DNA from: a virus
Taxonomy: Duplodnaviria > Caudoviricetes
IMG/VR virus record: IMGVR_UViG_3300042332_001032
Location: 1-57,748 of that record
Reading direction: 5' to 3' (one strand)
Length of the DNA: 57,748 nucleotides
Under the pieces are notes generated by a model, which was not told where the DNA came from, made no database searches, and worked only from the letters and a program-made list of their open reading frames with translations. Position numbers and translations under genes: made by a program. Of the stretch, positions 8,644 through 46,479 are shown piece after piece (positions within the stretch are counted from its first letter, which is position 1; every line of letters begins with the position of its first letter).

Positions 8644-10042
8644 GGTGAGTGGCTGAGAAATCTAGGCGATCTTTAGTCGTCTAGATGAATCAGCTAAAAT
8701 ATTTTTATAAATCTTAATATTTTTTGTAAAAAATACGTTCGTCTGAGATAAGTAATAATAGATGATCGGAAAAGTACAAGAACTAAAAGAGAACGAAATG
8801 CACAAAGCATTTAAGTTCCGTTTGCTTCCTACAAAGGAGCAGGAAGTTCTTTTGGCAAAGCATTTTGGCTGTTCAAGATTCATCTATAATCATTTTTTAG
8901 CTGAAAAACAGAAGCATTATTCGGAAAACAAAGAGACACTAAAATTCAATGTTTGTCAAAATATGCTTATAAAGCAGAAAAAGGACGAAGGTTATGATTG
9001 GCTTAAAGAAGTTAATTCTCAATGTTTAGTAGCGACATTGGTCAATTTAGAGACAGCATATACAAACTTTTTCAAGAAAAAATCTAAATTCCCTCGTTTT
9101 AAATCAAAAAAGAACAAAAATAGTTTCAATATTCCTCAACATGTTTCTTTGAAAGAACGTAACGTAGTTCAAATTCCAAAGTTCAAAGAAGGAATCAAAT
9201 TTGTTAAGCACAGAGAACTAAAAGGAGTTATTAAGAGCGCAACTGTTTCAAAGAATCCTTCTGGAAAATATTATATCTCTTTTCTTTGTGTTATAGAAAA
9301 ACCAACTAAACACAAAAAGACTGGAAAGAGCATCGGAATTGATTTAGGATTAAAGGATTTCATTATTACTTCTGAGGGACAAAGGTACTGTAATCCTAAG
9401 TTCACTAAAAAGTACGAGGTTAAGTTAGCAAGAAAACAAAGAATTTTAAGCAGAAAGGTAAAAGAATCGAAAGGAAGAGACAAAGCTCGTTTGAGCGTTG
9501 CAAAGGTACATGAGAAGATAACCAATTCTCGGAACGATATGCAACATAAAGTCTCCTCCAAGTTAGTAAGAGACTATGATCTGATTGCAATAGAAGACCT
9601 GAACGTGAAAGGAATGGTTAAGAACCATTGCTTAGCTAAGGCAATATCAGATGTAGCTTGGTCAAGCTTTGTGACCAAATTAAAATACAAAGCAGAATGG
9701 AACGGAAAAGAAGTGATTGTAATAGATCGTTTCTACCCGTCTTCCAAAACATGTAGTTGCTGTGATCACATCAAAGAGTCGCTTAGTCTCGATGAAAGGA
9801 CTTGGACTTGTTCTAAATGCAACACAATACATGACAGAGATGTTAATGCTTCGAAAAACATTTTAAGAAGAGCATTAGCAATTCAATCGGCAGGAACTGT
9901 CGATAACAGGAATGGAGCTAAGGTAAGACCAAAGGAGATCTCAAAGGTTTCTAGAGGCACTGGCGTTGAAGTTCTTAAAAAGAAGAATGGACGTAAGTAC
10001 ATTCTGAAGCCAGTAGGTCTTTAGTGTCTACAGGTAGTTCAC
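8644..10042 (+). mobile_element. IS200/IS605-family (IS1341-type, tnpB-only) element 1
   Basis: TTAA target, left hairpin with AAAT guide, tnpB, right hairpin with GAAG guide and TCAC end. Confidence 0.92.
8762..10024 (+). CDS. tnpB: RNA-guided endonuclease TnpB
   Basis: KAFKFRL N-terminus, RuvC GIDLG / IEDL / DRDVNA, CxxC..CxxC zinc ribbon; alternative start 8798. Confidence 0.97.
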   Translation: MIGKVQELKENEMHKAFKFRLLPTKEQEVLLAKHFGCSRFIYNHFLAEKQKHYSENKETLKFNVCQNMLIKQKKDEGYDWLKEVNSQCLVATLVNLETAYTNFFKKKSKFPRFKSKKNKNSFNIPQHVSLKERNVVQIPKFKEGIKFVKHRELKGVIKSATVSKNPSGKYYISFLCVIEKPTKHKKTGKSIGIDLGLKDFIITSEGQRYCNPKFTKKYEVKLARKQRILSRKVKESKGRDKARLSVAKVHEKITNSRNDMQHKVSSKLVRDYDLIAIEDLNVKGMVKNHCLAKAISDVAWSSFVTKLKYKAEWNGKEVIVIDRFYPSSKTCSCCDHIKESLSLDERTWTCSKCNTIHDRDVNASKNILRRALAIQSAGTVDNRNGAKVRPKEISKVSRGTGVEVLKKKNGRKYILKPVGL

Positions 10043-10062
10043 GTAAAGCTAAGATTAACTTC
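9885..10062 (+). ncRNA. Predicted omegaRNA of element 1 (scaffold + ~20-nt flank-derived guide GTAAAGCTAAGATTAACTTC)
   Basis: Scaffold from ATCGGCAGGAACTGTCGAT to TTCAC is conserved with compensatory changes across copies; boundaries approximate. Confidence 0.75.
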
Positions 10063-12222
10063 ATAGAACGCGTTTTTATGCGCTAAGCTGGTAAATGTAT
10101 TAGTGTTTGCTATTACCGTGTATGTTTGATTAGGTTGTAATAAGAACTTCGGTATTACGTGCTGTACGACATTCGCGTTTGATGCTGTGCATATATACGA
10201 ACCATTAAATTGAGGTGCTTGTTGCGGAGCTGTTGCTGTAGTGACAGCTGTTCCTTGATAGTAAACCGTAAATGCTTCTAATACACCTTGAGTTTGTACG
10301 GATTCACCATTTATTTTTAATGTTAAAACTGAAGGGCAATTTTTTGTAGTAATGTTAGCAGTCGCGGAGCCGAACATTGTTGTTATAGGGGATGTGCAAC
10401 TATCAGACATTTTATAACGTGCTTTAAGTTTATCGCTACTTATCACCCATTCAGATAGATCTGAATCTTGACCGAATGTAGTAGACCATGATACAGACGG
10501 CTTATCACAAATTACCTTATTTGCAAACGGTTCAACACACGTTGGATCGAAATAACTAAATAACGAGCAATAATTTTCCCACAAATAATTTATATTTCTA
10601 TTAACAACAATAGAGGTAACAGGTTCGTTTTGTCCAATAAAAAGCTCTTCTTTTTTATACTTTGGCGGTTTATACCCTTTACAATACGTACCATCGTATT
10701 GTAAGGTAGATCTGAATATCTCTATATTATCCCACATACGCTGAAAGGATTTATTATACACCCAATCCTGTATATACTCATCTTTATCGATCAATACCTG
10801 TTCGAGAGACCAAAAATTAGACGGTAGAGAGCTCTTTGTTGCTCTTTGTTTTAAAATGTGTACGTATTTGATAATTTTATCTCCGAATGTTACTAATGTG
10901 CTTCTAAACTCATCCTGATATATGCTGTTTATGTTTTCTACGCATTTTTTATCTTTAAATAAATAATCAAATTCAATACCAGTTCTTACGTATTTTCTTA
11001 CAAATGTATTATATGTTACATATATTATTTGCTTATTAAAGTTCGTGTTAATTTTTTTAGGTATCTGTGTTGTATCAATAGCGTATTTAAAAAGAAAATT
11101 ACCTGTGTAATCATACACTCTTATCGAGTTACTAGTTAATACGTGTACCTGATCAATTTCGTCAATAGCTACACTCAGCGGTGATACTAAATCACTGTCA
11201 ACAATGGTTGTTATCCAATTACCAGCAGGAGTGTAGCATTTAACACAATTGTTACCTGTATCTGTAACCCAGACGTTATCGTTGTTATCAATATGTATAT
11301 CATTAGGCTTTAAAAATTTATTTGTAGAAGCAATTGTACCGACTCCTCCCCATAAATTAAGCAACGTCCATGGTTTATTTGCAGTTACATCAAAACTATA
11401 TACAGCTACCTTACATTGCACGTTATCTAGCACGTATATATGATTAGCGCTATTTATCGCGATACCGCATATACTAGAAAACCGTACCACATTATCTATC
11501 GTGTATCGTACCCCTAATTGCGTAGACGTGTAATTAGATGAAAGCACGTAAAATGTCGTAGAGCGAGAAACGTAAAGTATATTGTCTCTAGAAGCAATAC
11601 CAGTATAAAAACATTTTTGTGTCGAGGAGCAATTACCGATAGGTTCGTAATAATCATCGATTAAAGGTATATTTACATTCCATATACCATCATCACACCG
11701 CGAACTATCATTACCGTCACAAGGTTCGGAGTTCCATATCTTTGCGTACTCGTTATTATCCCTTGTCATCTTCCATGTTATAGGTAATTCAGCTTTTGCT
11801 GTCGAACGCATCTCCCAATCCCAATCTGTACAGTATTTACCGAAACAGGATTTCTTAGTACACTCATGTCCTTGAAACGATAAGCATGGATCTATATCTG
11901 TACCAACACACTCTAAATCTTTCCACTTTACAACTCGAGGATTTGTTGCACTGCAATCAGTTTCACTCCAGTATATAGTTTTACAATTAAATTCGTTTTC
12001 AGGTAACGGCCCTAGCCAACCGTAGTACTCAATATAATCATAGAGCTGACAGTTTCTACTATCCAATTGCAAAAGACCGTTATGCATTACGCGTAACGAG
12101 TTATTGATATTATCTTCAACAGCAATTTCGTTAGGCATTATAAGACCAGTCTTATTACATGAAACTGGTAATTCCATACCTTTAGGAACACATCTTGTAA
12201 CGTCTATTAAATTGTTAATCAT
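10039..12222 (-). CDS. NHL-repeat virion protein
   Basis: KFLKPNDIHID..NVWVTDTGNN, PLSVAID NHL motifs; Cys/Trp-rich N-terminus. Confidence 0.8.
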   Translation of the reverse strand: MINNLIDVTRCVPKGMELPVSCNKTGLIMPNEIAVEDNINNSLRVMHNGLLQLDSRNCQLYDYIEYYGWLGPLPENEFNCKTIYWSETDCSATNPRVVKWKDLECVGTDIDPCLSFQGHECTKKSCFGKYCTDWDWEMRSTAKAELPITWKMTRDNNEYAKIWNSEPCDGNDSSRCDDGIWNVNIPLIDDYYEPIGNCSSTQKCFYTGIASRDNILYVSRSTTFYVLSSNYTSTQLGVRYTIDNVVRFSSICGIAINSANHIYVLDNVQCKVAVYSFDVTANKPWTLLNLWGGVGTIASTNKFLKPNDIHIDNNDNVWVTDTGNNCVKCYTPAGNWITTIVDSDLVSPLSVAIDEIDQVHVLTSNSIRVYDYTGNFLFKYAIDTTQIPKKINTNFNKQIIYVTYNTFVRKYVRTGIEFDYLFKDKKCVENINSIYQDEFRSTLVTFGDKIIKYVHILKQRATKSSLPSNFWSLEQVLIDKDEYIQDWVYNKSFQRMWDNIEIFRSTLQYDGTYCKGYKPPKYKKEELFIGQNEPVTSIVVNRNINYLWENYCSLFSYFDPTCVEPFANKVICDKPSVSWSTTFGQDSDLSEWVISSDKLKARYKMSDSCTSPITTMFGSATANITTKNCPSVLTLKINGESVQTQGVLEAFTVYYQGTAVTTATAPQQAPQFNGSYICTASNANVVQHVIPKFLLQPNQTYTVIANTNTFTSLAHKNAFYEVNLSFT

Positions 12223-13804
12223 AAAAATTTACTACCTTAATAATATTTGCAAACGTTTGTACTCTCACGCTACCATTAACTGTAGTTGTAGTAATATTTA
12301 ATGTTTTATATCCCGCTGTATTGTATATTTTTTTGAAATCTAAATACATACTAGCGCTCGTAAGAGTTTGTACGGTACCGTCTCCGTAATCAATTTTAAT
12401 ACTTAATAGAGAACTTATATTGGTAGTAAGGTTTTCGAATTTTACTTCTCTACCAGCTAAAACAAATCTATTAGGCGTGTATATTTTAACGTAAGGTGCA
12501 GCTCTAACAACAGCCGTTAAGGACTCGCATAACGTTGTACGCTTAACATTCGGAGTATAATTGATAAGATCAATACCTTGTTCGTAGAGCGAATTTAATA
12601 TTAAATCGGTGTAGTAAGCTGTAGTAGCATCTGGGCTAACTACCTCGGTGCCTTTATATAGCACTTGATGTTTATATTTTATATTACTATTAAACTCTGC
12701 TAGACTACTCTGAGGAGTATAGTTGCTACCAATGCCAGTCTGTACTGATGATAAATGAGATGTAAAAGCGGGGCATCTATCTACGTTATTTGCATAAGTT
12801 GTAGCTAGAATTGTTGCTTTATAAAAATCCGAGGATGGTGTACCGGTTAAAAACGTTTTAAATGTCGAAATATCTGTATCATATGTACTTGTTTTAGCGG
12901 GATTAGTACAGCTCGTTACGTATGCGCTCGGGGAATCAGTAAACAGTAAATACACATTACTCGTACCATCGCCACTCAACGCCTGGTATCCACTTGACAT
13001 TAACGTTTTTAAATATCTTTTATCTCCGTTAGCGGGTTGTACTTTAATTATATCGTTTATATCTGTTATTAAATGATTGGTAGCTGTAAAATAATTTATA
13101 GCACGCGGTTTTATAACAGTGTCAACTATATTAACAATTTCGCTATGTATTTGAGACATAGTACCCTGATCAGTAAAGAGTGTAATAGTATTAAAGACAC
13201 TTTCACATTTTATATCTTGGCAAACTTTCACATTTAGTATAGTGTCTTTTTCAAGAGAGAACGTGTAAGGCGATAAACCATCTTGAGAGTACTTTAAAAA
13301 ATACGGAAACTTATTAATTTCTGAACCTAAGGATGTACTAACTGACCAGTTTTTTGTAGAGAGGTTCCAAATTACATAATCTTTCTCACAACCACATAAA
13401 ACAGTTGTAGCGGTAATTGTAGAGGGTTGCACATGTGGTTCTTTTATCCATCTTTTTTCATACGAATTACCACACTTTACGTTTTCCCATGTAGAAGGTT
13501 TATGAGTAAACGTATTTAAAGGCATAGTTGCCGGGGATGAGCATCCTTTAAATGTTGACCATTTCCATGAAACCCCATAAGCCTCAACGCACGGATCTGT
13601 TAATGGAGTAGGTGTAACGATACCACCAACATTTAGTAGCGTTGTATAAAACAGCCCTTCAAATGCTGTAGGTGTTAGGTTGTGATAGAGATTAATAATA
13701 TTATCTCCTGCAGTAGACGTAATGTTATTCAGTGTGTCTCCGTTAAATGTGGTAACTGCTGATAGAAAATTATTAATACTATAGTTTCTTGTTATAGTTG
13801 TCAT
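12215..13804 (-). CDS. Virion protein with C-terminal PKD-like domain
   Basis: V.FEN....IDYGDG....IY...GYKT motif. Confidence 0.7.
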   Translation of the reverse strand: MTTITRNYSINNFLSAVTTFNGDTLNNITSTAGDNIINLYHNLTPTAFEGLFYTTLLNVGGIVTPTPLTDPCVEAYGVSWKWSTFKGCSSPATMPLNTFTHKPSTWENVKCGNSYEKRWIKEPHVQPSTITATTVLCGCEKDYVIWNLSTKNWSVSTSLGSEINKFPYFLKYSQDGLSPYTFSLEKDTILNVKVCQDIKCESVFNTITLFTDQGTMSQIHSEIVNIVDTVIKPRAINYFTATNHLITDINDIIKVQPANGDKRYLKTLMSSGYQALSGDGTSNVYLLFTDSPSAYVTSCTNPAKTSTYDTDISTFKTFLTGTPSSDFYKATILATTYANNVDRCPAFTSHLSSVQTGIGSNYTPQSSLAEFNSNIKYKHQVLYKGTEVVSPDATTAYYTDLILNSLYEQGIDLINYTPNVKRTTLCESLTAVVRAAPYVKIYTPNRFVLAGREVKFENLTTNISSLLSIKIDYGDGTVQTLTSASMYLDFKKIYNTAGYKTLNITTTTVNGSVRVQTFANIIKVVNFYD

Positions 13805-13809
13805 GCTTA

Positions 13810-16258: not shown

Positions 16259-17815
16259 ATGAAAAACGAAATTACTGCATTTCTTAAACAAGAATATAAT
16301 GATTCATTACGGTTTTTAAAACCGAAAATGTTCATTAAACGATTTGGTCAAGATGTGTACAATAATATATGCGATTTTACACTTTTTTTAGAACATTCTG
16401 TACCATTTTCAAGACGAGTTTATTGTTTTCTCAACGATATAAGCGCAACACCTCTCTGTAAAGTATGTAATAAGGAGGTGAAATATAATCATAACACAGG
16501 TTATCAAAAATATTGTTCGAATGCTTGTAGACTATCTGATATTAAAAACATACAAGATATTAAACGACAGACTAATATTAGAAAGTATGGAACAACAAAT
16601 GTACTTACAAGTGTGTACGGTAAAGCAAAAAAGAAAGAAACATGTATTGAAAAATACGGAGTCGATAATTATGTAAAAACAGACGAATATAAAAATAGAA
16701 TAAAAACAGGAGATATAACGAGAGTATACAATACTGAGAAAAATAAAATTGTAAGTAGAGAAAAATATTATAAATTACTTGCCGTAAAATATCCAACTCT
16801 TACTCCACTTTTTTGTGTTGATGAATATAGAGGTGCGAATTCATACGATATTGTTTACCCGTGGCAGTGTGTAACATGTAACAAAAAATTTGAGCACTGG
16901 ATTAATAATAATTACCCCATCTTATGTCCGTATTGTAAGCCAAAGGGTACGTATTATGAGAATGTACTTAAAAAATTTTTTGAAAAATATAACATAGAGT
17001 ATATTTTTCGAGACAGAAAAAAACTTAACAATCTTGAAATCGACTTTTATTTACCGGGGTGTAACTTAGGCATAGAAATTAACGGTTTGTACTGGCATTC
17101 TGAAAAAAATATTACAGATCGTAATTATCATTTTAAAAAGACAGAAGAAGCTTTAGCAAACAACATAAGACTTATTCAGATTTTTGAGGATGAGTTTTAT
17201 AGTAAACAGGCAATTGTATTCTCGAGATTAAAGCATATATTAAACTTGCAAACCCGTTCAATATACGCAAGAGAGTGTTGTATTGAATCAATTACTAATC
17301 ATGTGAAAAGTTTATTCAATGAAAAATATCATATACAGGGAGATGTTAATACGAGTATCAACTACGGGTTATATTATAAAAAGAGACTCGTAGCCGTTAT
17401 GACGTTCTCAAAGCTTAGAAAAGCATTAGGTAGTAATTCTGAAGAAAATGTATACGAGCTTGTAAGATATTGCACAGTAAAAAACTTTAACATAGTCGGG
17501 GGAGCTGGAAAGCTTTTAAAATACTTCTGTAAAAATAACAACGTTAAAAAAATAATTAGCTACGCTGATAGAAGATGGTCATTAGGTAGCGTGTATGAAG
17601 CCATTGGTTTCACGCGAGAAAAAATAACATCTCCTAACTATTGGTATACAAAAAATTACACTACTCGTTTGCATAGATTCAATTTTCAAAAACATCTTTT
17701 AAAGGGTAAATTAGACGTGTATGATGAAAACCTCACTGAATGGGAGAATATGAAAGCCAACGGCTATACAAGAGTGTGGGATTGTGGTCATTTAAAGTAC
17801 GTAATGCAGACCTAA
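16259..17815 (+). CDS. Hef-like putative homing endonuclease
   Basis: KYG repeats, EIDFY...IEINGLYWHS PD-(D/E)xK motif, C-terminal ELVRY/SYADRRWS/WDCG domain. Confidence 0.8.
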   Translation: MKNEITAFLKQEYNDSLRFLKPKMFIKRFGQDVYNNICDFTLFLEHSVPFSRRVYCFLNDISATPLCKVCNKEVKYNHNTGYQKYCSNACRLSDIKNIQDIKRQTNIRKYGTTNVLTSVYGKAKKKETCIEKYGVDNYVKTDEYKNRIKTGDITRVYNTEKNKIVSREKYYKLLAVKYPTLTPLFCVDEYRGANSYDIVYPWQCVTCNKKFEHWINNNYPILCPYCKPKGTYYENVLKKFFEKYNIEYIFRDRKKLNNLEIDFYLPGCNLGIEINGLYWHSEKNITDRNYHFKKTEEALANNIRLIQIFEDEFYSKQAIVFSRLKHILNLQTRSIYARECCIESITNHVKSLFNEKYHIQGDVNTSINYGLYYKKRLVAVMTFSKLRKALGSNSEENVYELVRYCTVKNFNIVGGAGKLLKYFCKNNNVKKIISYADRRWSLGSVYEAIGFTREKITSPNYWYTKNYTTRLHRFNFQKHLLKGKLDVYDENLTEWENMKANGYTRVWDCGHLKYVMQT

Positions 17816-22299: not shown

Positions 22300-22347
22300 A
22301 ACTTGCCCTACAAGTGCTTCAAAACATAAACCTTCATTTGTATTTAT

Positions 22348-22400
22348 ATAAATAAGGACTGAGTGAAAACCGAAGGATCTTTAGTCGTTCGGTAGTTCAC
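22348..22400 (+). mobile_element. 53-bp minimal element: left-end leader fused to right end through a single hairpin
   Basis: TTAT|ATAAATAAGGACTGAGTGAAAA-CCGAAGGATCTTTAGTCGTTCGG-TAGTTCAC. Confidence 0.88.
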
Positions 22401-23265: not shown

Positions 23266-23684
23266 ATAAAATAAAAATTCAATCTAATCGAATGATGACA
23301 TTCTAAATGAATCTAAAGCAAAATTAACTTTAGAATTCTTAGATTTGAATTTTCTAAAAACTGTTTCTTTCGGAACAGAAACTCTATATTTCACTTTAAA
23401 GTTTTTTAACCAAGAATGTAACTCTTTCCAATCTTTGACTTCTGGTACTTCGGTTTGCTTCCATAGCTCCTCTAAGTACGTTTTCGAAGGCAATTCTGGA
23501 TAGAATTGTTTATTTTTGGTTATTATCAACCTAAAACCTCTTTGTGCTATTTCGGCACTAGAAGCTAAAGGATCTGGTGAATCTTTATGTAGAATATTTC
23601 CTATCGTAGAAGAATAAAATTGTTGATTTTTCATATAAGTTATTTATACGAATTTGTATTCAAATTAACATTCAGAAAATAATA
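23266..23684 (-). mobile_element. 419-bp duplicated cassette, copy 2
   Basis: Near-identical to 694..1112; ends immediately before the gp4 ATG. Confidence 0.75.
23284..23634 (-). CDS. Hypothetical protein of the duplicated cassette
   Basis: 116 aa, TATAAATA upstream. Confidence 0.8.
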   Translation of the reverse strand: MKNQQFYSSTIGNILHKDSPDPLASSAEIAQRGFRLIITKNKQFYPELPSKTYLEELWKQTEVPEVKDWKELHSWLKNFKVKYRVSVPKETVFRKFKSKNSKVNFALDSFRMSSFD

Positions 23685-23689
23685 ACCTC

Positions 23690-24601
23690 TTATACAGGTG
23701 TTGTTGTAGGTGTCGGTGTTGGCGTAGGAGTCTCTGTCGGAGTCGGCGTCTCTGTCGGAGTCGGCGTCTCTGTAGGAGTCTGAGTTGGCGTCTCTGTAGG
23801 AGTCTGAGTTGGCGTCTCTGTCGGTGTCGGAGTTGGCGTCTCTGTAGGTGTCGGTGTTGGCGTCTCTGTCGGTGTCGGAGTTGGCGTCTCTGTAGGTGTC
23901 GGTGTTGGCGTAGGAGTCTCTGTAGGAGTCTCTGTCAGTGTCGGAGTTGGCGTCTCTGTAGGAGTTACTGTAGGAGTTGGTGTAATGGAAGGAGTTGATG
24001 TGAGTGTCGGTGACTGAGAAGGATATGCAGAAATTGGAGGTAATTTAAATATATCTCTACTGTACCCTAATATTAAAGAACCTGTATTAAAATAAAATAA
24101 TGTATATCCTTTATTATCTGATGCTGATAACGAAATACTTCCCCCCACATACACGCTATCACTAGAGGTAACGACTATATTATTGCTTACAGGGGAAACT
24201 GATATCATACACTGAGAAATATCAGTCGGTACAAAGGTATTAGTTACAGATACTACAGCAAAAGAGTCAAATTGTATGTCGAAGAAATTAACAGATGTAT
24301 CTACTATTACATAATCCCTATAACGTAACGCGCGTACAGTCTCATTATCTGTATTAACATATATATACGAAGGATCGTCTTGAGGTACACGCATATCTAC
24401 CCTGAAATAGATATCAGAATAACTAAAAATCTCTGCAGCTATATTTTTACCGTAATCAGATAATAACCTCCAGTCTCCCTCTGGTATTGTTGTATCAAAA
24501 CCACTATCTGATCTCTGTAAATCTACAGATAGAGCAGAAACAAAGGTTGAATATTTTGCTAAAAACTGCTTTACGCGTGTGTTTTTTTCTGTAGCTCCCA
24601 T
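23690..24601 (-). CDS. Virion-associated protein with Pro/Thr-rich C-terminus
   Basis: 303 aa ending in ~100 aa of TP(T/E) repeats. Confidence 0.8.
23693..24012 (-). repeat. Pro-Thr coding tandem repeat (TPTETP)
   Basis: Degenerate 18/24-bp units such as GGCGTCTCTGTAGGAGT. Confidence 0.9.
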
Positions 24602-27948: not shown

Positions 27949-27988
27949 TATTTTTATTTATTACCACTATCTTGATATTTCAATTTAT

Positions 27989-29388
27989 ATAAATAAGGAC
28001 TGAGTGAAAACCCATAAGTCTTTAGCCTATGGGATGAAACTCAGCCAAAATATTTTTAAATTATTTTTCATTTTTACTCTAAAAAGTAAACCGTCTGAGA
28101 TAAGTATAATAGATGATTGGAAAAGGACAAGAACTAAAAGAGAACGAAATGCACAAGGCATTTAAGTTCCGTTTGCTTCCTACAAAGGAGCAAGAAGTTC
28201 TTCTGGCCAAGCACTTTGGTTGCGTAAGGTTCATTTATAATCATTTCCTCAGTGAAAAACAAAAGCACTTTTTAGAAAATAAAACCACACCGAACTTCAA
28301 TCAATGTGCAGGAAATTTGGTAGCAAAGAAAAAAGAAGAAGGTTATGAATGGTTAAAGGAAGTTAATTCTCAAGTTCTTATATCAACTTTAATGAACTTG
28401 GAGACAGCTTATGGTAACTTTTTTAGAAAAAAATCAAAGTTCCCTAAATTCAAATCCAAAAAGAATAAAAACTCTTTTCAAATACCTCAACATGTTTCTT
28501 TGAAAGAGAAGAACGTGGTTCAAATTCCAAAGTTCAAAGAAGGTTTGAAATTCATTAAGCACAGAGAACTCAAAGGAACAATTAAATCGGCTACTATCTC
28601 CAAGAATCCTACAGGTAAATACTACATTTCATTTCTTTGTGTTGTAGAAAAACCAACTAAGCACAAAAAGACAGGGAAAAGTATTGGAATTGATTTAGGG
28701 TTAAAGGATTTTATCATTACTTCTGAAGGACAAAGATATTGTAATCCAAAGTTTTTAAAGAAGTACGAGGTTAAGTTAGCAAGAAAACAAAGAATTTTAA
28801 GCAGAAAAGAAAAAGGATCAAAAGGAAGAGACAAAGCTCGTTTGAGCGTCGCTAATGTACATGAGAAGATAACCAATTCTCGTAACGATATGCAACATAA
28901 AGTTTCCTCCAAGTTAGTAAGAGACTATGATCTGATTGCAATAGAAAACCTGAACGTGAAAGGAATGGTTAAGAACCATAAACTATCTAAGGCAATATCA
29001 GACGTAGCATGGTCAAGCTTTGTGACCAAATTAAAGTACAAAGCACAATGGAACGGAAAAGAAGTGATTGTAATAGATCGCTTTTATCCTTCCAGTAAAA
29101 CATGTAGTTGCTGTGATCATATCAAAGAAAGCCTTTCATTAGATGAAAGAACCTGGACTTGTTCTAAATGCAACACAATACATGATAGAGATGTTAATGC
29201 TTCAAAGAATATTTTGCGTAGAGCATTAGCAATTCAATCGGCAGGAACTGTCGATAACAGGAATGGAGCTAAGGTAAGACCAGAAGTTGTTTCTAAAGCA
29301 ACTAAAGGCACTGGCGATGAAGTTCTTAAAAAGAAGGGTAGAAAATATGCCCTGAAGCCGAACGATCTTTAGTCGTTCGGTAGTTCAC
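27989..29388 (+). mobile_element. IS200/IS605-family (IS1341-type, tnpB-only) element 2
   Basis: TTAT target, left hairpin with AAAA guide, tnpB, right hairpin and TCAC end. Confidence 0.92.
28113..29372 (+). CDS. tnpB: RNA-guided endonuclease TnpB
   Basis: RuvC GIDLG / IENL / DRDVNA and zinc ribbon intact; close paralog of 8762..10024. Confidence 0.97.
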   Translation: MIGKGQELKENEMHKAFKFRLLPTKEQEVLLAKHFGCVRFIYNHFLSEKQKHFLENKTTPNFNQCAGNLVAKKKEEGYEWLKEVNSQVLISTLMNLETAYGNFFRKKSKFPKFKSKKNKNSFQIPQHVSLKEKNVVQIPKFKEGLKFIKHRELKGTIKSATISKNPTGKYYISFLCVVEKPTKHKKTGKSIGIDLGLKDFIITSEGQRYCNPKFLKKYEVKLARKQRILSRKEKGSKGRDKARLSVANVHEKITNSRNDMQHKVSSKLVRDYDLIAIENLNVKGMVKNHKLSKAISDVAWSSFVTKLKYKAQWNGKEVIVIDRFYPSSKTCSCCDHIKESLSLDERTWTCSKCNTIHDRDVNASKNILRRALAIQSAGTVDNRNGAKVRPEVVSKATKGTGDEVLKKKGRKYALKPNDL

Positions 29389-30153: not shown

Positions 30154-32646
30154 ATGTCTTTTATTATAACAAAACAGTTACTACAAGGCATTTACGCATC
30201 AACATACCGTAAACCGGTTTTTGATAGAGAATCACTTACTATAGAGTATAATTTAGATCTTAATACAGATACTGATAAAAACACTATACATCTAACACTT
30301 GATAGCTTGTATACATACGATTTTGTTATTAACTGGGGAGATGATAGTATAAGCCGTATTACAACCTGGAACGATGAAAACACTACCCACGTGTATAGTA
30401 CTTATGGAGGGATAAAGACTATACAGATAAAAGGAGTTCTACCAAAATGGAGTGTAGATAAAAATAGAAATTCTGTTATTAGTGTTAAACGATGGGGTAC
30501 GAGTTTACAATACACGGATTATAGTTTTTCATGGGATGGTTGTAGTAATCTAGTATTTGACGCTACAGATTCTCCAAATACGAATTTAGTTAGTAATTTT
30601 AAAGGGGCTTGGTCGGGGTGTACGAGCTTAACAAGCTTTCCGAATTTTTATTTTGATAGTTGTACTGATCTTTCTTATGCCTGGGAAAATTGCATTAATA
30701 TAAAACAGCTACCGTATTTTTATACAGATTTTGTAATAGATTTTTCTTATACATGGGCAGGATGTACAAATCTAGAAAGTTTACCGTTTTATAACTACAG
30801 TAACGGAATTAATTTTAAAAGAACATGGTGCGAATGTAAAAAGCTTACGGAATTACCGGTAATAGATTTTAGTAATTGTGTGAACGTGGAGGGAGCGTGG
30901 GAGTCGTGTGAGTCGTTAATAACTCTATCTGCTTACAATCTCAATAACTGCACTAATGTCGAAAACGCTTGGAAAAATTGCACTTCTTTACAGACATTTT
31001 TCGAATTAAACGTACCGATGTGCTCAAGTTTCAATAGCGCTTGGGAAGACTGTATCTCTTTAATATTGATGCCAGGTATAACAGGTTCTGCTCTTACAGA
31101 GAGTTTAGAACATACATGGGACGGTTGTCAAAATATACAAGAATTTAGCTCTTTGGATTTTACACAGAACTGTACAAGTTTAAATTATACGTGGAGGGAC
31201 TGTGTATCGTTAAATTCGTTCCCTCTAATAGAAACAAGTAACTGTGTTACTTTTAATTCTACCTGGAAAAACTGTCAAACGCTTACAGAGTTTCCAGCAA
31301 TTAACACATCTCAGGCTGTTGAGCTTATAGAAGTATGGTCTGGATGTCAAAATCTCAAAACATTTCCGCAAATAGTCACAACTCAATGTAAGGATTTAAC
31401 AAACACGTGGAGTGGGTGCACCAGTCTTACTTCGTTCCCGCTTATAGACACGTTTAACGTTACAACTTTAGAATCAACGTGGTCTGGTTGCAGAGGTTTA
31501 ATACATTTTCCAGAAATTGATACAACAAACAATCAAAATTTTACTAACACTTGGCTCAATTGTAGTTCTTTAGTTTCATTTCCATCGAGTTTAATAACTC
31601 AGAATAACGAGACATTTATTAATACGTGGAACGGATGTACGAGTCTTACATCATTCCCTGTACTAGATTTTAGTGGCACTCATACTCTAGATGGCACATG
31701 GGCTAATTGTACATCATTGAGTTCGTTTCCTTTAATTAATACCTCTTTTGTAAATAATCTTAAGAATGCGTGGTATAATTGTACCTCCTTAATTAGTTTT
31801 CCAGAAAGTATATATACTCCCTTCTGTACTGATTTTACGAATACTTGGAGTCAGTGTACAAGTCTCACATCTTTCCCTCTAATAACTGTTGAGGGTACTA
31901 GGTCCCTTGTGGGTACGTGGTCACATTGTACATCGCTTAGTTCATTTCCTACTATTGATGTTAAAGATGTTTATCAGTTTATAGGTACCTGGGAAGGCTG
32001 TACAAGTTTAAAAGAATTCCTGATTACAGATTTTTCAAACGCACAGTCAATGTATAGTACATGGAAGGGCTGTATCTCGTTAAGTGCGTTCCCTAATATA
32101 AACGCTACGCAGTGTACTAATTTTTATGAAACTTGGGCTAATTGTACAGGGTTAAAGACGTTTGATTTTACAGATCACAATGGTACAATTTACACCGGTG
32201 CGTGGTCGGGGTGCACTGCTCTTACAGGTATTCCGTACTTTAACAGTCAGAATTGTACTGCCCTTGATAGAGCGTGGGAGAATTGTACGTCTCTGTTATC
32301 TATACCGGAGTTAATACTAACCAACATATCAACGCTCAATAGTGCATGGAAAAACTGCATAAACTTACGAGAGATACCGTCTATGCTTGTTGAAAACTGC
32401 GCCGATTTTACGGATTGTTTTTACGGATGTGTAAGCTTAAGTTCGTGCTCGTTTCAGAGTATAAGAGCGTCTATAAGCTTTAACGGGTGTAATTTAAATG
32501 TGCAGTCAATTATTGATATATTCAACAACCTAGACACTGTGGTATCTAGTCCTACTATTGACATCAGCAACAACCCTGGCACGAGCACCTTACAGTCAAC
32601 AGATATCTTAATTGCGACAGATAAGGGATGGAATGTTATTGCCTAG
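30154..32646 (+). CDS. BspA/DUF285-like leucine-rich repeat protein with N-terminal PKD-like module
   Basis: INWGD...H.Y, then more than 25 repeats of TW.GCTSL.SFP.I (~22 aa); ends A..KGW.V. Confidence 0.85.
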   Translation: MSFIITKQLLQGIYASTYRKPVFDRESLTIEYNLDLNTDTDKNTIHLTLDSLYTYDFVINWGDDSISRITTWNDENTTHVYSTYGGIKTIQIKGVLPKWSVDKNRNSVISVKRWGTSLQYTDYSFSWDGCSNLVFDATDSPNTNLVSNFKGAWSGCTSLTSFPNFYFDSCTDLSYAWENCINIKQLPYFYTDFVIDFSYTWAGCTNLESLPFYNYSNGINFKRTWCECKKLTELPVIDFSNCVNVEGAWESCESLITLSAYNLNNCTNVENAWKNCTSLQTFFELNVPMCSSFNSAWEDCISLILMPGITGSALTESLEHTWDGCQNIQEFSSLDFTQNCTSLNYTWRDCVSLNSFPLIETSNCVTFNSTWKNCQTLTEFPAINTSQAVELIEVWSGCQNLKTFPQIVTTQCKDLTNTWSGCTSLTSFPLIDTFNVTTLESTWSGCRGLIHFPEIDTTNNQNFTNTWLNCSSLVSFPSSLITQNNETFINTWNGCTSLTSFPVLDFSGTHTLDGTWANCTSLSSFPLINTSFVNNLKNAWYNCTSLISFPESIYTPFCTDFTNTWSQCTSLTSFPLITVEGTRSLVGTWSHCTSLSSFPTIDVKDVYQFIGTWEGCTSLKEFLITDFSNAQSMYSTWKGCISLSAFPNINATQCTNFYETWANCTGLKTFDFTDHNGTIYTGAWSGCTALTGIPYFNSQNCTALDRAWENCTSLLSIPELILTNISTLNSAWKNCINLREIPSMLVENCADFTDCFYGCVSLSSCSFQSIRASISFNGCNLNVQSIIDIFNNLDTVVSSPTIDISNNPGTSTLQSTDILIATDKGWNVIA

Positions 32647-33775
32647 AAAATACTTTAACCCCTGAAAGGAAGGGTGGGTTGTACGGTATGTGCGTGTTAT
32701 AATTGGGAGATGTAGGATCGTAGGGATTATACGTATTCCGGCGAGCGTGACTGATTAGTGTGCCGTATCCTGCCTGGTTTTCAACAATTATATCAATAAC
32801 ACCAGGGTTAGTTAAGTTGGAGACGCTAAATACGAGCTGATTATCATCAATCACGGTAAAGGAGCTCAGAGGAAGCTTTAAGGCGGTAAATGGCGAAAAA
32901 GTAGCAGAGAGTTTCGGGTTACTTGCAAAAGGTACTTGTAATACACCATCTACCGAACCTGAAAGATAAACGTTTTTTACACTAAAAAACGATGAACCAA
33001 AAAGGTTAATAATATTCGTTGAAGATGTTGGTACAGATAATGTATCTATAAATTTTGGTTGCGGGAAAGCAGACAATGTAATTCGCTTAGTATCGTCTTC
33101 ATTTAAAGATTCTAAAGAGTATTTTGATGTTAACTCATTAAGAGTTGTAAAATCTGTATTGATTGTTAGTATTTCACCCTCATCTTCTTTCGGGAATGAT
33201 TTAAATATCCAACCTTTTAAAGTGAAAGAAGTATCTGCTCGTACCCGAGCAACTGACGTTGCTTGTAATTCCATCGGGTAGTCGAAATTTATTGAACCAG
33301 ACCACTCTACTTTAGATCTAATCTCATGTTCTGGCATATCTGGAACTCTCCACGATATAACAAAATACGGATCACAATACGGTAAGAAGTTACTTATACA
33401 TTGATCCATATCGCTTTGATAACGTGTTAAGAAAGATACGTTTAGTGTTAGATCTATAGGTACAGGTTGTAGTAGCTTTTTCTTTTGTCTAGGATCTGTA
33501 GCCATATACGACGACCCAGCTATCTTATTAAACACTCTATTGCCATCTCTACTAATACCCCCTATGGAGACAGCAGCTACAGGTAATTGTAAGTTTTGAG
33601 CTCTATCACGTAAGTCATGTAATACACGCTGCTTTGGTGCGTATACGAAGCGTACCTTTATTTGATCTCTTGCGTTTTTATGTACATTATGTCTCTTTAT
33701 TATTATGTCATCCATCGCAGAGATGAACATAGTAACAAGTCTTTCAACTTCGAATTGAAAAGTATAACTTCGCAT
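32636..33775 (-). CDS. gp15: Tail sheath stabiliser/terminator gp15-like with C-terminal Ig-like extension
   Basis: F....DIII.R, V..VYAPKQR, LP, PVP......S.LTRYQ.D.DQ...NF.PY..PY, FTLKGWIF. Confidence 0.85.
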   Translation of the reverse strand: MRSYTFQFEVERLVTMFISAMDDIIIKRHNVHKNARDQIKVRFVYAPKQRVLHDLRDRAQNLQLPVAAVSIGGISRDGNRVFNKIAGSSYMATDPRQKKKLLQPVPIDLTLNVSFLTRYQSDMDQCISNFLPYCDPYFVISWRVPDMPEHEIRSKVEWSGSINFDYPMELQATSVARVRADTSFTLKGWIFKSFPKEDEGEILTINTDFTTLNELTSKYSLESLNEDDTKRITLSAFPQPKFIDTLSVPTSSTNIINLFGSSFFSVKNVYLSGSVDGVLQVPFASNPKLSATFSPFTALKLPLSSFTVIDDNQLVFSVSNLTNPGVIDIIVENQAGYGTLISHARRNTYNPYDPTSPNYNTHIPYNPPFLSGVKVFSRQ

Positions 33776-33807
33776 TTAGATATTTAGGTACAATACCTAA
33801 ATTTCTC

Positions 33808-34662
33808 TTAGTCGTTCATGTCTCTATATGGCGAACCTGAGAAACGAAAGTTTGGAGAAAGCTCTCTCTCAACTTCGCCTCTAGATATAACTCTATCGGT
33901 GTCTGTTAGATCTTCATCATCTATCTGATCTTCATCTTCTATAAAAGGTGTTCCCTCTTCTTCTTCTTTGCTCGTACTGTCAGATGGTAAAATAGCTTGA
34001 ATATTTTTTAATTTTGTAGCGGTTGACATGCCAACTAACTTACATAAATCTGTCCATTCAATATCTTTATCATCAGGTAAAGAGTTCCATGCAGGGTACA
34101 GTGCTCCCTCTTCTTCAGGTGTCACATCTTCAACTGGAAAATCTGCGGACTTAAAAAATGTCGTAATCTCGTCATCATCGATAGTAATTTTTTCCTTCTC
34201 TGGTTTCTCAATCTCAGCTACGACTTCGTCTGTAGCTGTATCTGCAACTTCTTCAACTTCCTCTTCTGTAGGCTCGCTGATTAATGCCGTACCTTTCTTA
34301 CCGCCTGATTTTTCATCAGTGATAAATCCAGCATCTTTCATGGCGTTATATACGACACGTGCTGCGTAAACAGCTTTTGTAGGATTAAGAGATGTGTGCG
34401 CAACAATCTTATCAGCTATTACCATTTTTTGAAAATCCTTATAAGGTAAAGGCGAATAATTGTTACGTGTCTGTAGATAATCAATTACACTATCAATAAC
34501 GCTTGCAACTTGTTGTGGCGTAATTTTATAGTTTGCGGTATCTGTGAATGTTGCAGGAGCTCTTTCACCTGCACCTACCCCGATACCGGGTTCGAGATTA
34601 ATAGGCATATCTTCAGATATGCGCTGTATATATTTATTATAAATGGTATCAAACTGTGTCAT
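33808..34662 (-). CDS. Hypothetical acidic late protein
   Basis: 284 aa, TATAAATA upstream. Confidence 0.75.
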   Translation of the reverse strand: MTQFDTIYNKYIQRISEDMPINLEPGIGVGAGERAPATFTDTANYKITPQQVASVIDSVIDYLQTRNNYSPLPYKDFQKMVIADKIVAHTSLNPTKAVYAARVVYNAMKDAGFITDEKSGGKKGTALISEPTEEEVEEVADTATDEVVAEIEKPEKEKITIDDDEITTFFKSADFPVEDVTPEEEGALYPAWNSLPDDKDIEWTDLCKLVGMSTATKLKNIQAILPSDSTSKEEEEGTPFIEDEDQIDDEDLTDTDRVISRGEVERELSPNFRFSGSPYRDMND

Positions 34663-35317: not shown

Positions 35318-35701
35318 TTAGTTATTCATTAATCTTGCTTTTTCTGTACCCGACATAGGTAGTATTTTTTCTTGGAAATACTTCCAAAAATTATCTGCTG
35401 GTGTTGATTTAATTACAGCGACAACATCGACTGATTCACAAGATATCATTCTATAGTTTTGTAGTAGAATGTCCCATGTTACAATAAGGTTTTTGTGAGA
35501 AGGTGTATAATTCAGCGCGCCTGTAGGCGGTACGTAATTTAAAACTCTTTGACCAGAGTTAGACATAAGTAGTAGTTTATCGTTAGTACATAGCATTCTT
35601 CGTTGTGTACTATAGCCTTCTTTCATTATTCTCCTTGTAAATCTGAGCTCAACTACATGATTTAAAAGTAATACTGAAAGTGCCTGTCTACTTGCGCGCA
35701 C
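35318..35701 (-). CDS. SH3-like (DUF2693-like) phage protein
   Basis: V.L.F.......R.M.CT......VTWD....YR. Confidence 0.65.
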   Translation of the reverse strand: MRASRQALSVLLLNHVVELRFTRRIMKEGYSTQRRMLCTNDKLLLMSNSGQRVLNYVPPTGALNYTPSHKNLIVTWDILLQNYRMISCESVDVVAVIKSTPADNFWKYFQEKILPMSGTEKARLMNN

Positions 35702-40665: not shown

Positions 40666-40668
40666 TTT

Positions 40669-41006: not shown

Positions 41007-41015
41007 TTTTAAACA

Positions 41016-41960: not shown

Positions 41961-41972
41961 GTATCTACTACT

Positions 41973-42110: not shown

Positions 42111-42153
42111 CACTGGTGCGCTGAAAGTTCCGTAGTGTCTGATTAAATACTAC

Positions 42154-42836: not shown

Positions 42837-42899
42837 AATATTAATTATTCTAAAACGAAGAGGTTTCTCAGATATCTGATTAAATAATTTAAAATCTAT

Positions 42900-43847: not shown

Positions 43848-44200
43848 GTGAACTACCGAGCGACTAAAGATCGTTTGGCTTCAGAACATAAATGTTCTTT
43901 CTTTTTAGACACTTCATAGCCGTTGCTTTTAAATTGCTTTAAAAGTCTTATGTCAGCTCCATGCCTGTAATCGGCAGTTCCTGCCGATGAACATCCATAG
44001 TATGTTCTTTTTGCCTTTGATATACTTGGTATCAGCATCCAAAAGGAAGACGAAGTCTTCCTTGCTACGCCACTGAAAGGTCTTTTCATTATTTGTTTTA
44101 GATCTATTTCCATTGAAGGGGTTATTTTTATTTATCTTTTGCAAGGCTGAGTTTCATCTGAGTGACTAAAGATCACTCAGCTTTCACTCAGTCCTAATAA
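43848..44200 (-). mobile_element. Non-autonomous omegaRNA-bearing element C
   Basis: Both end hairpins present; right end abuts the TAA of 42900..43847; left junction uncertain by ~4 nt. Confidence 0.9.
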
Positions 44201-44211
44201 ATAAAATTACC

Positions 44212-44580
44212 ATGGAACAAGTCATTTTTAATTTAATCCGATTACAAAACCAATTTCGTATTTTACACTGGCAGACTCAAAGCTACGCACAACACAAAGC
44301 ATTTGGTGATATATATGACGCATTAGATGGTCATATTGACACTCTGGTTGAAGTACACCAAGGCAAGTACGGTAGAATCATATTCAACATGCCGTTCAAT
44401 ATAGAGTTAGTAAATTTCGATGATTTCGATATGACTTCTGTTCTCGAAGAAGCTACAGATTATCTTTCTACTGAATTTGGTAGTAACTTAGACGATGTTA
44501 AAGATACAGATTGCTTGAATATAAGAGATGAAATTTTAAGTGAACTAAATAAATTAAAGTATCTCTTAACACTTAGTTAA
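44212..44580 (+). CDS. Ferritin/Dps-like protein (DUF5856-like)
   Basis: HWQT.SYAQHKA....YD.L...D.LVE..QG, NIRDE......KYLLTL. Confidence 0.85.
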   Translation: MEQVIFNLIRLQNQFRILHWQTQSYAQHKAFGDIYDALDGHIDTLVEVHQGKYGRIIFNMPFNIELVNFDDFDMTSVLEEATDYLSTEFGSNLDDVKDTDCLNIRDEILSELNKLKYLLTLS

Positions 44581-44586
44581 GAGATA

Positions 44587-44862: not shown

Positions 44863-44954
44863 ATATCTTATGCTGTTTCTTAGAGTTAAACAAGCTAAAA
44901 AAAATTCATTTTTCTTTGTTGAAATTATCTTGTCTGGGCGTATTATACCTAGTA

Positions 44955-45491: not shown

Positions 45492-45535
45492 TAGTTGCTT
45501 TCTTAAAAAAAGATTTTAATATCAAAAATGTAGTT

Positions 45536-45790
45536 ATGAAACATATTGTTGACTCATTTACAACAACTCAAGGAAGAATAGTAACAACAAAAACTCTTTT
45601 GAATGTTATTCGTAGAATTAAAAACGGAGAAGATGACAGAGAGATTATTAACGAAGAGTTATCTGATATTCCTGTTGATGAAGAAAGAGACGTTGACGAA
45701 GCATACGAAGTCATTGATTACTGTCAAGATAAAATAGAACAAGAAGAACTTGACTATCTTATAGAGCACACTAAACACATTAAAAATTAA
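45536..45790 (+). CDS. Hypothetical protein
   Basis: 84-aa ORF with upstream TTGCTT..TAATAT-like promoter. Confidence 0.65.
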   Translation: MKHIVDSFTTTQGRIVTTKTLLNVIRRIKNGEDDREIINEELSDIPVDEERDVDEAYEVIDYCQDKIEQEELDYLIEHTKHIKN

Positions 45791-45805
45791 TTTTTATAAC
45801 CAATC

Positions 45806-46063
45806 ATGAAAGACAAAGCAAAAAAGCAAAACAAGGCAAGCAGCGAAACATACAGCATCACCCGTAATGTTATTAAGACACCCGGGCACACTGCTCGTAA
45901 GACATCCAAGCTCGGTAACACGATGCGCATGTTGAACATTGGAGACGGGTTTACATACCCGTTTGCAAAGTCCTCTAACGTACACCGTGCAGCTCGTAAC
46001 TATGGTTACGAAATGGCTACCCAACGTACCGAAAAAGGTATCTTGGCTGTTCGTTGCGCCTAA
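45806..46063 (+). CDS. Small basic protein, possibly DNA-binding
   Basis: 85 aa; L.IGD.F....V..AA......G...VR; followed by terminator. Confidence 0.7.
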   Translation: MKDKAKKQNKASSETYSITRNVIKTPGHTARKTSKLGNTMRMLNIGDGFTYPFAKSSNVHRAARNYGYEMATQRTEKGILAVRCA

Positions 46064-46077
46064 TATAAAAACAAACA

Positions 46078-46112
46078 AAAAAGCCGAGATCATAAAGATC
46101 TCGGCTTTTTTT
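46078..46112 (+). terminator. Intrinsic terminator
   Basis: GCCGAGATC-loop-GATCTCGGC-T7. Confidence 0.9.
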
Positions 46113-46119
46113 ATTTTAT

Positions 46120-46479
46120 ATTTCAGGACTGAGTGAAAGCTGAGTGATCTCTAGTCACTCAGATGAAACTCAGCCTTGCAAAAGATAAATAAAAAAGATA
46201 AATAAAAATAACCCCTTCAATGGAAATAGATATTTTAAATTATATAAAAAGACCTTTCAGTGGCGTAGCTAGATTAATTTCTATAGGATGCTGATACCAA
46301 GCAAATCAAAGGCAAAAAGAACATACTATGGATGTTCATCGGCAGGAACTGTCGATTACAGACATGGAGCTGACATAAGACTTTTGAATTCATTTAAAAG
46401 CAACGGCTATGAAGTGTCTAAAAAGAAAGAACATTTATGTTCTGGAAGCCGAACGATCTTTAGTCGTTCGGTAGTTCAC
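46120..46479 (+). mobile_element. Non-autonomous omegaRNA-bearing element D
   Basis: TTAT|ATTTCAGG...TAGTTCAC, 360 bp; between terminator and ligase promoter. Confidence 0.92.

Follow-up and report, generated by a model that had tools for sequence, protein, structure and literature searches.

Are the TnpB genes found in a phage expressed by signals of their own, or have they taken on those of the virus that carries them? The question is raised by IMG/VR record IMGVR_UViG_3300042332_001032, which we analysed over its whole length of 57,748 bases and refer to as the window. The window is a fragment of a distant T4-like phage and contains two TnpB-only elements of the IS605 type, six cassettes that hold a guide RNA but no tnpB, and one relic made of left-end (LE) and right-end (RE) sequence. 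Cas12 descends from TnpB, a protein that processes its own transcript into omega-RNA and whose natural role in bacteria is still under study. A first-pass annotation of the window had proposed that elements and cassettes are wired to the late promoter of the phage and form a phage-specialised lineage rather than a stray host insertion sequence (IS). The comparisons described below point in the same direction: the elements probably belong to a phage-resident IS200/IS605-type TnpB/omega-RNA lineage that has come to use the expression signal of the T4-like phages carrying it.

The tnpB genes share a start-proximal motif with the genes of the phage

The two full elements are laid out as follows.

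8640-10042, plus strand: element 1; LE hairpin at ~8643-8710, AT-rich spacer, GATAAGTA at 8747-8754, tnpB at 8762-10024 (420 aa), RE
27989-29388, plus strand: element 2; left junction TTAT/ATAAATAAGG, LE hairpin at 27996-28046, GATAAGTA at 28099-28106, tnpB at 28113-29372 (419 aa), RE ending at 29388

Each tnpB open reading frame (ORF) is flanked by a nested LE hairpin and by an RE ending in GGTAGTTCAC, which in element 1 falls at 10042; the left boundary of this element is uncertain by a few nt. The two ORFs are 88% identical, and both match the Pfam families HTH_OrfB_IS605, OrfB_IS605 and Cas12f1-like_TNB, all above the cut-off. The best solved matches were ISDra2-type TnpB (E 5e-72). Alignment to a solved TnpB-like nuclease made visible the RuvC D/E/D residues in GIDLG, IAIEDLN and HDRDVNA, motifs that we take to hold the catalytic residues of TnpB, as well as the zinc finger CSCC...CSKC. 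The Y1 transposase TnpA (PF01797) was not found in any of the five phage records searched (the window, G001, G003, G006 and G008), of which G001 is complete and the other four are fragments; a control search recovered PF01797 in 6 of 14 known genomes. Element 1 is placed antisense between two minus-strand genes. A 727-aa minus-strand gene (10039-12222) has its stop codon inside the last bases of the element 1 RE (10038-10042).

Late genes of this phage had been described as carrying (A/T)TAAATA ~5-15 nt before the start and no Shine-Dalgarno (SD) sequence. Our gene calls came from our own longest-ORF heuristic, not from a gene finder, and comprised 72 genes in the window. TAAATA occurs 113 times on the two strands, and 23 of these occurrences lie at -25 to -9 of the 72 starts, a zone of ~1% of positions in which 1.2 were expected; its reverse complement is found there twice. 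The core ends 4-16 nt before the gene start, in good agreement with the distance first described. The same holds in related phages: TAAATA was the top-ranked hexamer at -25 to -9 in all five records compared, with 48 observed vs 4.15 expected in G001, 16 vs 1.83 in G002, 19 vs 2.25 in G003 and 27 vs 1.30 in G006, the window being the fifth. TAAGTA was enriched as well (4-18 observed vs 0.35-0.69 expected, all five records). As for other hexamers, TAACTA and the reverse complement of TAAGTA were in most records no more than ~3-fold off expectation (in one record, up to 8-fold), TAATTA was moderately enriched (2- to 10-fold), and the non-overlapping AT-rich hexamers TAATAA and TTAAAT showed much weaker enrichment. 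Over the whole window, the 8-mers TATAAATA (14 vs 9.9 expected) and GATAAGTA (4 vs 3.7) occur at chance level. Given the enrichment of TAAATA before starts, the signal is thus a positional one.

Both tnpB genes carry the variant GATAAGTA, ending 7 and 6 nt before the first ATG, as the first-pass annotation had noted. Because TAAGTA is enriched in all five records, this is a natural variant of the same motif and not an odd near-miss. Indeed, TAAGTA in G001 precedes homologues of head-tail adaptor and head-closure genes, among others. We derived a position matrix from 186 gene-proximal sites, with the tnpB genes excluded. It has A just before the core in 56% of sites, two bases before unconstrained (G 22%), A (78%) or G (22%) at core position 4, and an A/T-rich stretch downstream of the core. 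The sites of tnpB genes and cassettes score 8.2-12.5 on this matrix, where the training sites have their median at 10.8 and their 10th percentile at 7.2. The proposed wiring to the phage motif therefore stands by comparison, on the strength of an invariant motif (see below), of TAAGTA before structural genes and of ordinary scores; the role of the motif as a late promoter is inferred.

To describe the spacing, the five records were pooled and start codons opening an ORF of at least 80 aa were counted. The distance from motif end to start was 0, 1, 2, 3 and 4 nt in 0, 2, 6, 2 and 7 cases, and 5, 6, 7 and 8 nt in 27, 38, 21 and 20 cases, that is, a sharp onset at 5 nt, a peak at 6 nt and a tail to 17 nt, with a flat control. 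By PHROG and Pfam annotation, the motif precedes 5 of 8 structural vs 1 of 10 non-structural genes of the window (one-sided Fisher 0.03), and 6 of 8 structural homologues in G001 carry it. Unlike tnpB, none of the four HNH/GIY-YIG endonuclease-like genes has the motif within 25 nt of its start. SD sites are few, much as described, with GGAG, GAGG or AGGA at -20 to -4 in 5 of the 72 window genes and an SD site in 30 of 257 genes of a second set. Strong AAGGAGG/GGGAGGA sites (53430-53450, 53670-53690, 54960-54980) stand before three small plus-strand genes (53449-53691, 53688-53933, 54978-55187). A single phage may therefore use two kinds of translation signal.

The motif is invariant in the TnpB lineage

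If the motif belongs to the elements, it should be found with their relatives. TAA[A/G]TA lies 5-9 nt before the start in all 37 lineage rows (61-94% protein identity), some of which are the same contig in two collections; 25 of these rows (65-91% identity) came from a metagenome scan, and each keeps it at this distance. In an alignment of 11 elements, the two of the window and nine relatives at 78-92% protein identity, the columns T-A-A-x-T-A are invariant in 11 of 11, against a mean column identity of 66%. More distant members follow the same pattern, with TAAATA-N5-GTG or TAAATA-N5-ATG in a subgroup at 65-71% and TTAAATA-N6-GTG in a 61% copy in G006.

The start codon itself is peculiar to the lineage. 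In most lineage rows it is an upstream ATG that adds 11 codons without counterpart in distant homologues. L170 and L171 have lost the internal ATG and must therefore start at the upstream one. In solved TnpBs, as in homologues of at most 52% identity, the protein begins at query residue 12-14, from which we conclude that the lineage gained an upstream start codon, spaced from the motif like the phage's own genes. The upstream DNA of homologues at 52% or less is sigma-70-like or unrelated; few of them have TAAATA, and at no fixed position.

Guide-RNA cassettes carry their own copies of the motif

All cassettes are built to one plan, consisting of an LE hairpin, a short spacer, a ~270-nt region and an RE, with no tnpB. 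The six copies and the relic are listed below.

1-191, minus strand: cassette c1, cut by the contig end; LE hairpin and two GATAAATA (107-114, 120-127)
2599-2898, minus strand: cassette c2; LE hairpin lost, TTAAATA and GATAAATA (2880-2887), 274-nt RNA region ending in RE
22348-22400, plus strand: relic of 53 nt; left half of an element-2-type LE fused to an RE end (...GGTAGTTCAC)
43848-44204, minus strand: cassette c3; LE hairpin, one GATAAATA (44129-44136), RNA region 44121-43848
46120-46479, plus strand: cassette c4; LE hairpin, two GATAAATA (46184-46191, 46197-46204), RNA region 46212-46479
55175-55542, plus strand: cassette c5; LE hairpin, one GATAAATA (55239-55246) and a decayed second copy, RNA region 55267-55542
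57579-57748, plus strand: cassette c6, cut by the contig end; LE hairpin and two GATAAATA (57643-57650, 57656-57663)

Over their last 160 nt (3'), the cassettes can be aligned to the tnpB 3' end together with the RE, and the RE is identical in element 2, c4 and c5. A consensus fold of nine cassette copies from four contigs comprises 69 predicted pairs; compensatory changes occur in 15 of these, up to the exchange of whole hairpins for other sequences. We rejected a small cassette-encoded protein as the product: the 86-aa ORF of c2 and c3 matches only the C-terminus of TnpB, weakly, and is truncated in c4, c5 and the L121 cassette. With no conserved ORF, the product is taken to be an RNA, which makes each cassette an omega-RNA gene without tnpB. 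From these alignments, the omega-RNA is predicted to share sequence with the tnpB 3' end and to stop at the RE, taking its guide from the flanking DNA. An Rfam scan of the window returned tRNAs only, with no family for omega-RNA.

TAAATA is present upstream of the RNA in 9 of 9 complete cassettes across the four contigs, 7-8 nt (20 nt in two cases) before the conserved CCCCTTCAATGG. In several cassettes a 13-nt tandem duplication yields two motifs, the proximal of which has decayed to TAATTT in c5 and in one L123 copy. The L121 cassette is divergent and has an unrelated spacer, yet carries CTAAATA at the same distance. The first-pass annotation had reported one or two GATAAATA upstream of the RNA, and the counts bear this out: GATAAATA occurs 11 times in the window vs 5.6 +/- 2.4 expected, a number reached in 2 of 100 shuffles, and 9 of the 11 copies lie in the six cassettes.

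No cassette was found in G001-G005, where the match is limited to the 3' end of tnpB, and a search of viral contigs with a degenerate LE pattern returned only contigs already known. The contig ends of the window (1-195 and 57575-57731) lie inside cassettes and are 96% complementary to each other, and G006 and G008 also end in cassettes. Contigs ending in this way indicate that assemblies break at the repeat, and the copy number per genome is therefore underestimated. Cassette c5 sits between a GAGG SD-like site and the ATG of the downstream gene at 55543, and an in-frame ORF (55351-55731) runs from inside c5 through the RE into that gene.

The lineage is restricted to phages

A stray host IS would be expected to have close relatives in bacterial chromosomes. 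A protein search recovered relatives at 63-94% identity, many of them on contigs of 200-240 kb. IMG/VR holds eight loci at 78-92% identity, the next being at 52%. Among the representative genomes of 185,579 species, a single locus reached 82%, and every other full-length hit was at 51% or less. This sole "cellular" locus is a 13-kb contig binned in a metagenome-assembled genome (MAG); terminase and tail-tube genes lie in its flanks, and a viral contig encodes exactly the same TnpB protein. Thus, apart from this MAG-binned locus, TnpBs of at least 61% identity were on viral or metagenome contigs. In a quick maximum-likelihood tree of 43 rows, the 12 lineage rows form one clade with full support (SH-aLRT 100, a Shimodaira-Hasegawa-like approximate likelihood-ratio test). 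Several other viral TnpBs in this tree have near-identical cellular copies as neighbours, the pattern expected of stray host IS. Eight loci were left out of the tree because of internal stops (L049, L051, L067, L068, L083, L084, L087 and L091).

Taken together, these searches support a phage-restricted TnpB lineage, as the first-pass annotation had argued. Identical elements common in bacterial chromosomes, which would have spoken for a stray host IS, were not found among the representative genomes. The lineage also spreads between phages. The TnpB of the window is 90-91% identical to that of G001, though their core proteins are 46-66% identical. Similarly, cassettes of the window and G006 are 90-96% identical, and the two share no other nucleotide similarity of at least 120 nt. 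TnpB and cassettes are thus far more alike between phages than the backbones, which argues that the elements move between phages.

Insertions tend to adjoin the motif

The left junctions of element 2 and of the relic had been proposed to create a perfect late promoter, TATAAATA. The sequence is indeed there, on the plus strand at 27988-27995 (element 2) and 22347-22354 (relic), and on both strands at the relic. As functional promoters, however, these sites are not convincing: they score 5.9-6.2, below the training 10th percentile, and no gene follows them. On the plus strand, the relic is followed by the 3' end of a gene in convergent orientation, and behind its minus-strand TATAAATA there is no gene, the nearest ORFs being of 21-27 aa. 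At the junction sites the TAAATA core lies wholly inside the element, and the two positions before it are unconstrained in the clade.

The target motif offers a better explanation of the junctions. The flank 5' of the LE reads TTAC or TTAT at 12 of 13 junctions with this hairpin type (window, L010, L120, L123, L142 and L144; the boundary is not fixed by any empty site) and CTAC at one. TTAY is contained in TATTTAY, the reverse complement of [A/G]TAAATA, and 5 of the 13 junctions lie exactly on that word. At c3 and L010, a TAAATA on the opposite strand stands 8-9 nt before the start of a divergent gene; in c3, the left junction abuts the TAAATA of the gene at 44212-44580. The tail-fibre gene next to element 1 (7868-8626) likewise has an opposite-strand TAAATA abutting the LE. 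Since TTAY lies inside the reverse complement of the presumed promoter, insertions would tend to adjoin late-promoter cores without destroying them, and an element inserted on a TTAY beside a promoter would be forced to point away from the neighbouring gene.

The tnpB copies of G001, G002 and G003 have no LE hairpin. In G001 (32480-34330) and G002 (73240-74830) a tnpB unit abuts the start codon of a minus-strand gene, at a site that is uninterrupted in G003 (69900-70760). The G002 unit is flanked by a diverged direct duplication of ~68 nt that corresponds to the 5' end of the minus-strand gene, and its RE abuts a duplicate copy resembling the uninterrupted allele. A second, LE-less unit in G003 (67950-69800) stands in place of 24 nt of a G001 intergenic region (35380-35680) that is intact in G001, directly upstream of a minus-strand ATG. 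Presence and absence in G001-G003 are a hint of behaviour like that of a homing endonuclease gene; the junctions are not clean enough to prove conversion.

Identity of the motif and alternative explanations

What is the motif for? On its sequence and position, TAA[A/G]TA is most likely the -11 to -6 core of a gp55-type late promoter. According to the accessible part of PMC1524935, the T4 late box TATAAATA spans -13 to -6, its first T is poorly conserved in T4-like phages, and phage Aeh1 uses CTAAATA. The conserved core of published gp55 promoters, a class that has no -35 element, is identical to the one found here. Furthermore, G001 encodes at 106600-107016 a phrog_234 late sigma factor (E 4e-27), the family having been identified by scanning T4 gp55 against PHROGs. 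If the geometry is that of T4, transcription at a spacing of 5 nt would begin on the A of the ATG itself, so that the sharp onset at 5 nt fits mRNAs that are leaderless or have a leader of 1-3 nt; the late mRNAs of the whole phage clade are predicted to be of this kind. A simple sigma-70 scan detected no sense-strand site upstream of c3, c4 or the tnpB of element 2 (the element 1 region was left out). Cassette c4 is inserted in the T-tract of a 15-bp bidirectional terminator (46077-46111). Being directly behind this terminator, c4 would need a promoter of its own, as would element 1, which is antisense to its neighbours.

We weighed three other explanations. The motif could be a translation-initiation or 5'-leader signal that replaces the SD sequence, in which case the cassette copies would be leftovers of a deleted gene start. 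The spacing peak at 5-8 nt is in the SD range, genes with an SD site are few (5/72 and 30/257), and a conserved ATG follows the motif by 15 nt in the cassettes, all of which would suit such a signal. We nevertheless hold it to be quite unlikely: the core is the gp55 promoter core of other T4-like phages and a gp55 homologue is encoded in G001, the spacing has a tail out to 17 nt, and enrichment is specific to TAAATA compared with other AT-rich hexamers. In the cassettes the motif is kept, and even tandem-duplicated, though the ORF is broken in c4, c5 and L121, and the strong AAGGAGG before three small genes implies that the host probably reads SD sequences. A purely incidental match, by which ordinary IS605-type passengers happen to have AT-rich 5' regions and are expressed by read-through or host-type promoters, strikes us as very unlikely. 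The chance-level counts of TATAAATA and GATAAGTA over the whole window, the 64% A+T of the genome and the presence of TAAATA somewhere upstream of the distant homologues L011, L014 and L091 would agree with it. It does not account for a motif that is fixed in position and invariant in its columns across the lineage rows while the spacer diverges, with site scores typical of gene-proximal sites. Read-through is unlikely given the antisense position of element 1 and that of c4 behind a terminator, and host-type promoters find no support in the missing sense sigma-70-like sites at c3, c4 and the tnpB of element 2.

The third alternative accepts the phage signal and concerns what the system does. 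TnpB and its dispersed guides could have been domesticated as a phage weapon against competitors or mobile elements, or as a regulator. This is unlikely, in our view, albeit with some points in its favour. The complete genome G001 keeps a single tnpB with RE and without LE hairpin, and no TnpA was found; the catalytic motifs are intact, and there are several guides per genome. Thermus phage Lalka27a, as far as the accessible text of bioRxiv 10.64898/2026.04.20.719267 goes, uses the TnpB-derived Cas12r on an abundant middle transcript. Each guide here, however, is DNA adjoining its own insertion, as in selfish elements, window copies retain LE and RE hairpins, and copies far more similar between phages than the backbones are what a spreading element would leave. 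The domesticated and selfish readings overlap, because homing also excludes competitors.

We therefore return to the adoption of the phage expression signal by a resident TnpB lineage. Full elements would be read from TAA[A/G]TA as a late transcript that is leaderless or has a leader of 1-3 nt, like those of the structural genes, and their omega-RNA would come from the 3' end of this transcript. In the cassettes, transcription from a late promoter of their own would yield a guide RNA that extends over ~270 nt up to the RE and takes its guide from the flanking DNA; for c4, T4 geometry predicts a start near 46210, ~270 nt of RNA up to the RE at 46479, and then the guide. The cassette RNAs could be loaded in trans by the TnpB of full elements, of which element 2 has the same RE. 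TnpB would then cut TTAY plus target on alleles without insertion in co-infecting phages, and recombinational repair would copy the element; late timing would coincide with recombination-dependent replication. From intact nuclease motifs and the absence of a detectable TnpA we infer persistence and spread by RNA-guided homing, in the manner of the homing endonuclease genes of T4; promoter identity, late timing and the use of cassette RNAs in trans have the same standing. A more far-reaching version seems possible, though we put it forward tentatively: late mRNAs would be leaderless, the added upstream start codon would sit at the late transcription start, the dispersed cassettes would act as a guide array for homing and marker exclusion with no transposase, and insertions would spare late promoters.

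Several observations weigh against this account. The gene starts depend on a longest-ORF criterion, which is crude. The motif is missing within 25 nt of 52 of the 72 starts, those of the major capsid gene and of two head-closure genes included, and is present at the annotated non-structural gene 44212-44580. A peak in spacing at 5-8 nt would equally be expected of a ribosome-binding element. Searches of the window, G002 and G003, each of them a fragment, did not find gp55. Part of the conservation of the motif is inheritance, as the lineage copies share ancestry. Cellular genomes were scanned through peptide patterns derived from the query, and close relatives may exist in unsampled hosts. Furthermore, nine copies at different loci of one contig imply real transposition, for which homing alone is insufficient; a TnpA could be encoded by the host or in the 73% of the phage genome that the window does not cover. 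Finally, the 300-nt flanks of seven window insertions, compared with all fetched DNA, gave no clean empty site, the sole match being an unrelated 91-nt repeat left of c5.

Other features of the window

The window is the whole IMG/VR record, with an estimated completeness of 27%. Its portal is of the T4 type (Pfam Portal_T4, E 1e-93), with a best identity of ~29-33% to named phages. PHROG matches include a major head protein, a prohead protease, head-closure and adaptor proteins, a tail fibre and a tail-sheath stabiliser, and the window also contains a DNA ligase, a tRNA cluster and four genes resembling homing endonucleases.

16259-17815: HNH or GIY-YIG homing-endonuclease-like gene
47969-48730: HNH or GIY-YIG homing-endonuclease-like gene
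49120-49938: HNH or GIY-YIG homing-endonuclease-like gene
51361-52407: HNH or GIY-YIG homing-endonuclease-like gene

A megablast search of 8600-12600 against the phage collection gave no match. The relative G001 has 202,880 bp with terminal repeats and is rated 100% complete; its capsid protein is 66% and its portal 46% identical to that of the window, and other shared proteins ~25-61%. A fifth tRNA (51247-51321) was called by Rfam (33.9 bits) and not reported by ARAGORN. A 300-nt stretch is present in two copies of 99% identity (694-993 and 23266-23565) and holds a 116-aa gene with TATAAATA-N6-ATG upstream (712-1062, 23284-23634). The 303-aa gene at 23690-24601, which has a TAAGTA motif upstream, contains at least 17 overlapping copies of a repeat with a 12-nt period (23681-24028), suggesting a repetitive structural protein.

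Relation to known systems and implications

The closest known systems are the IS200/IS605 TnpB/omega-RNA elements (ISDra2, IS608 and the Geobacillus ISGst). They share with the elements of the window the TnpB domains, RuvC motifs, zinc finger and LE/RE hairpins, a structured RNA that overlaps the 3' end of tnpB and extends to the RE, and TTAY 5' of the LE (at 12 of 13 junctions here). In contrast to them, no TnpA was found here in five records, the lineage is confined to T4-like phage contigs, an upstream start adds 11 codons, a motif of the phage type replaces the host promoter, and some copies lack the LE hairpin. Other viral TnpBs stand beside near-identical cellular copies in the tree, whereas this lineage does not.

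The cassettes resemble PATE-like non-autonomous IS605 derivatives, which encode omega-RNAs in bacteria (Meers et al., PMC10055086, in its accessible portion). Both are LE, guide RNA and RE units without a protein gene that need TnpB in trans. Compared with what that portion describes, the present units lie in a lytic-type phage genome, have one or two phage gene-proximal motifs directly before the RNA, and number six in 57.7 kb, at 90-96% identity to copies on otherwise dissimilar phage contigs. T4 offers a precedent for the expression signal: the homing endonuclease genes I-TevI, I-TevII, I-TevIII and segB have late promoters of their own directly upstream (Edgell et al., PMC2988022, as far as its available text goes). 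They, too, are selfish nucleases in T4-type genomes, between or beside essential genes and with a late promoter upstream; unlike them, the system described here would recognise its targets through RNA and has guide-only satellites. TnpB-type nucleases transcribed within a phage programme are represented by Lalka27a Cas12r and by the tnpB of cyanophage A-1(L), which, by the accessible part of bioRxiv 10.64898/2026.02.14.705889, is strongly induced during infection. The present case differs: expression is predicted from sequence, a CRISPR array is missing, transposon-end RNAs scattered along the genome provide the guides, and the carriers are T4-like with gp55-type signals. Omega-RNA-encoding PATEs, late promoters before T4 endonucleases and phage TnpB-type nucleases transcribed in infection are thus already known. 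Their combination in a TnpB lineage confined to phages, which joins a conserved gp55-type motif and an additional start codon to promoter-bearing cassettes and has no transposase, is not described in the literature that we searched, supplements excluded.

If this reading is true, the elements would represent natural RNA-guided homing between viral genomes; a 2026 review (PMC13565253) treats such "non-restorative homing", in its accessible text, as theoretical. The cassettes would mark a step from the transposon guide towards a multi-guide array, and a single phage nuclease might serve homing and marker exclusion across many loci when phages co-infect. The reading also makes a testable prediction, leaderless late transcription in an uncultured phage clade, and the compact 420-aa nuclease comes with several natural guide scaffolds for comparison. 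For the TnpB family, the window presents a lineage that appears confined to lytic-type T4-like phages, equipped with phage expression signals and accompanied by guide-only satellites.

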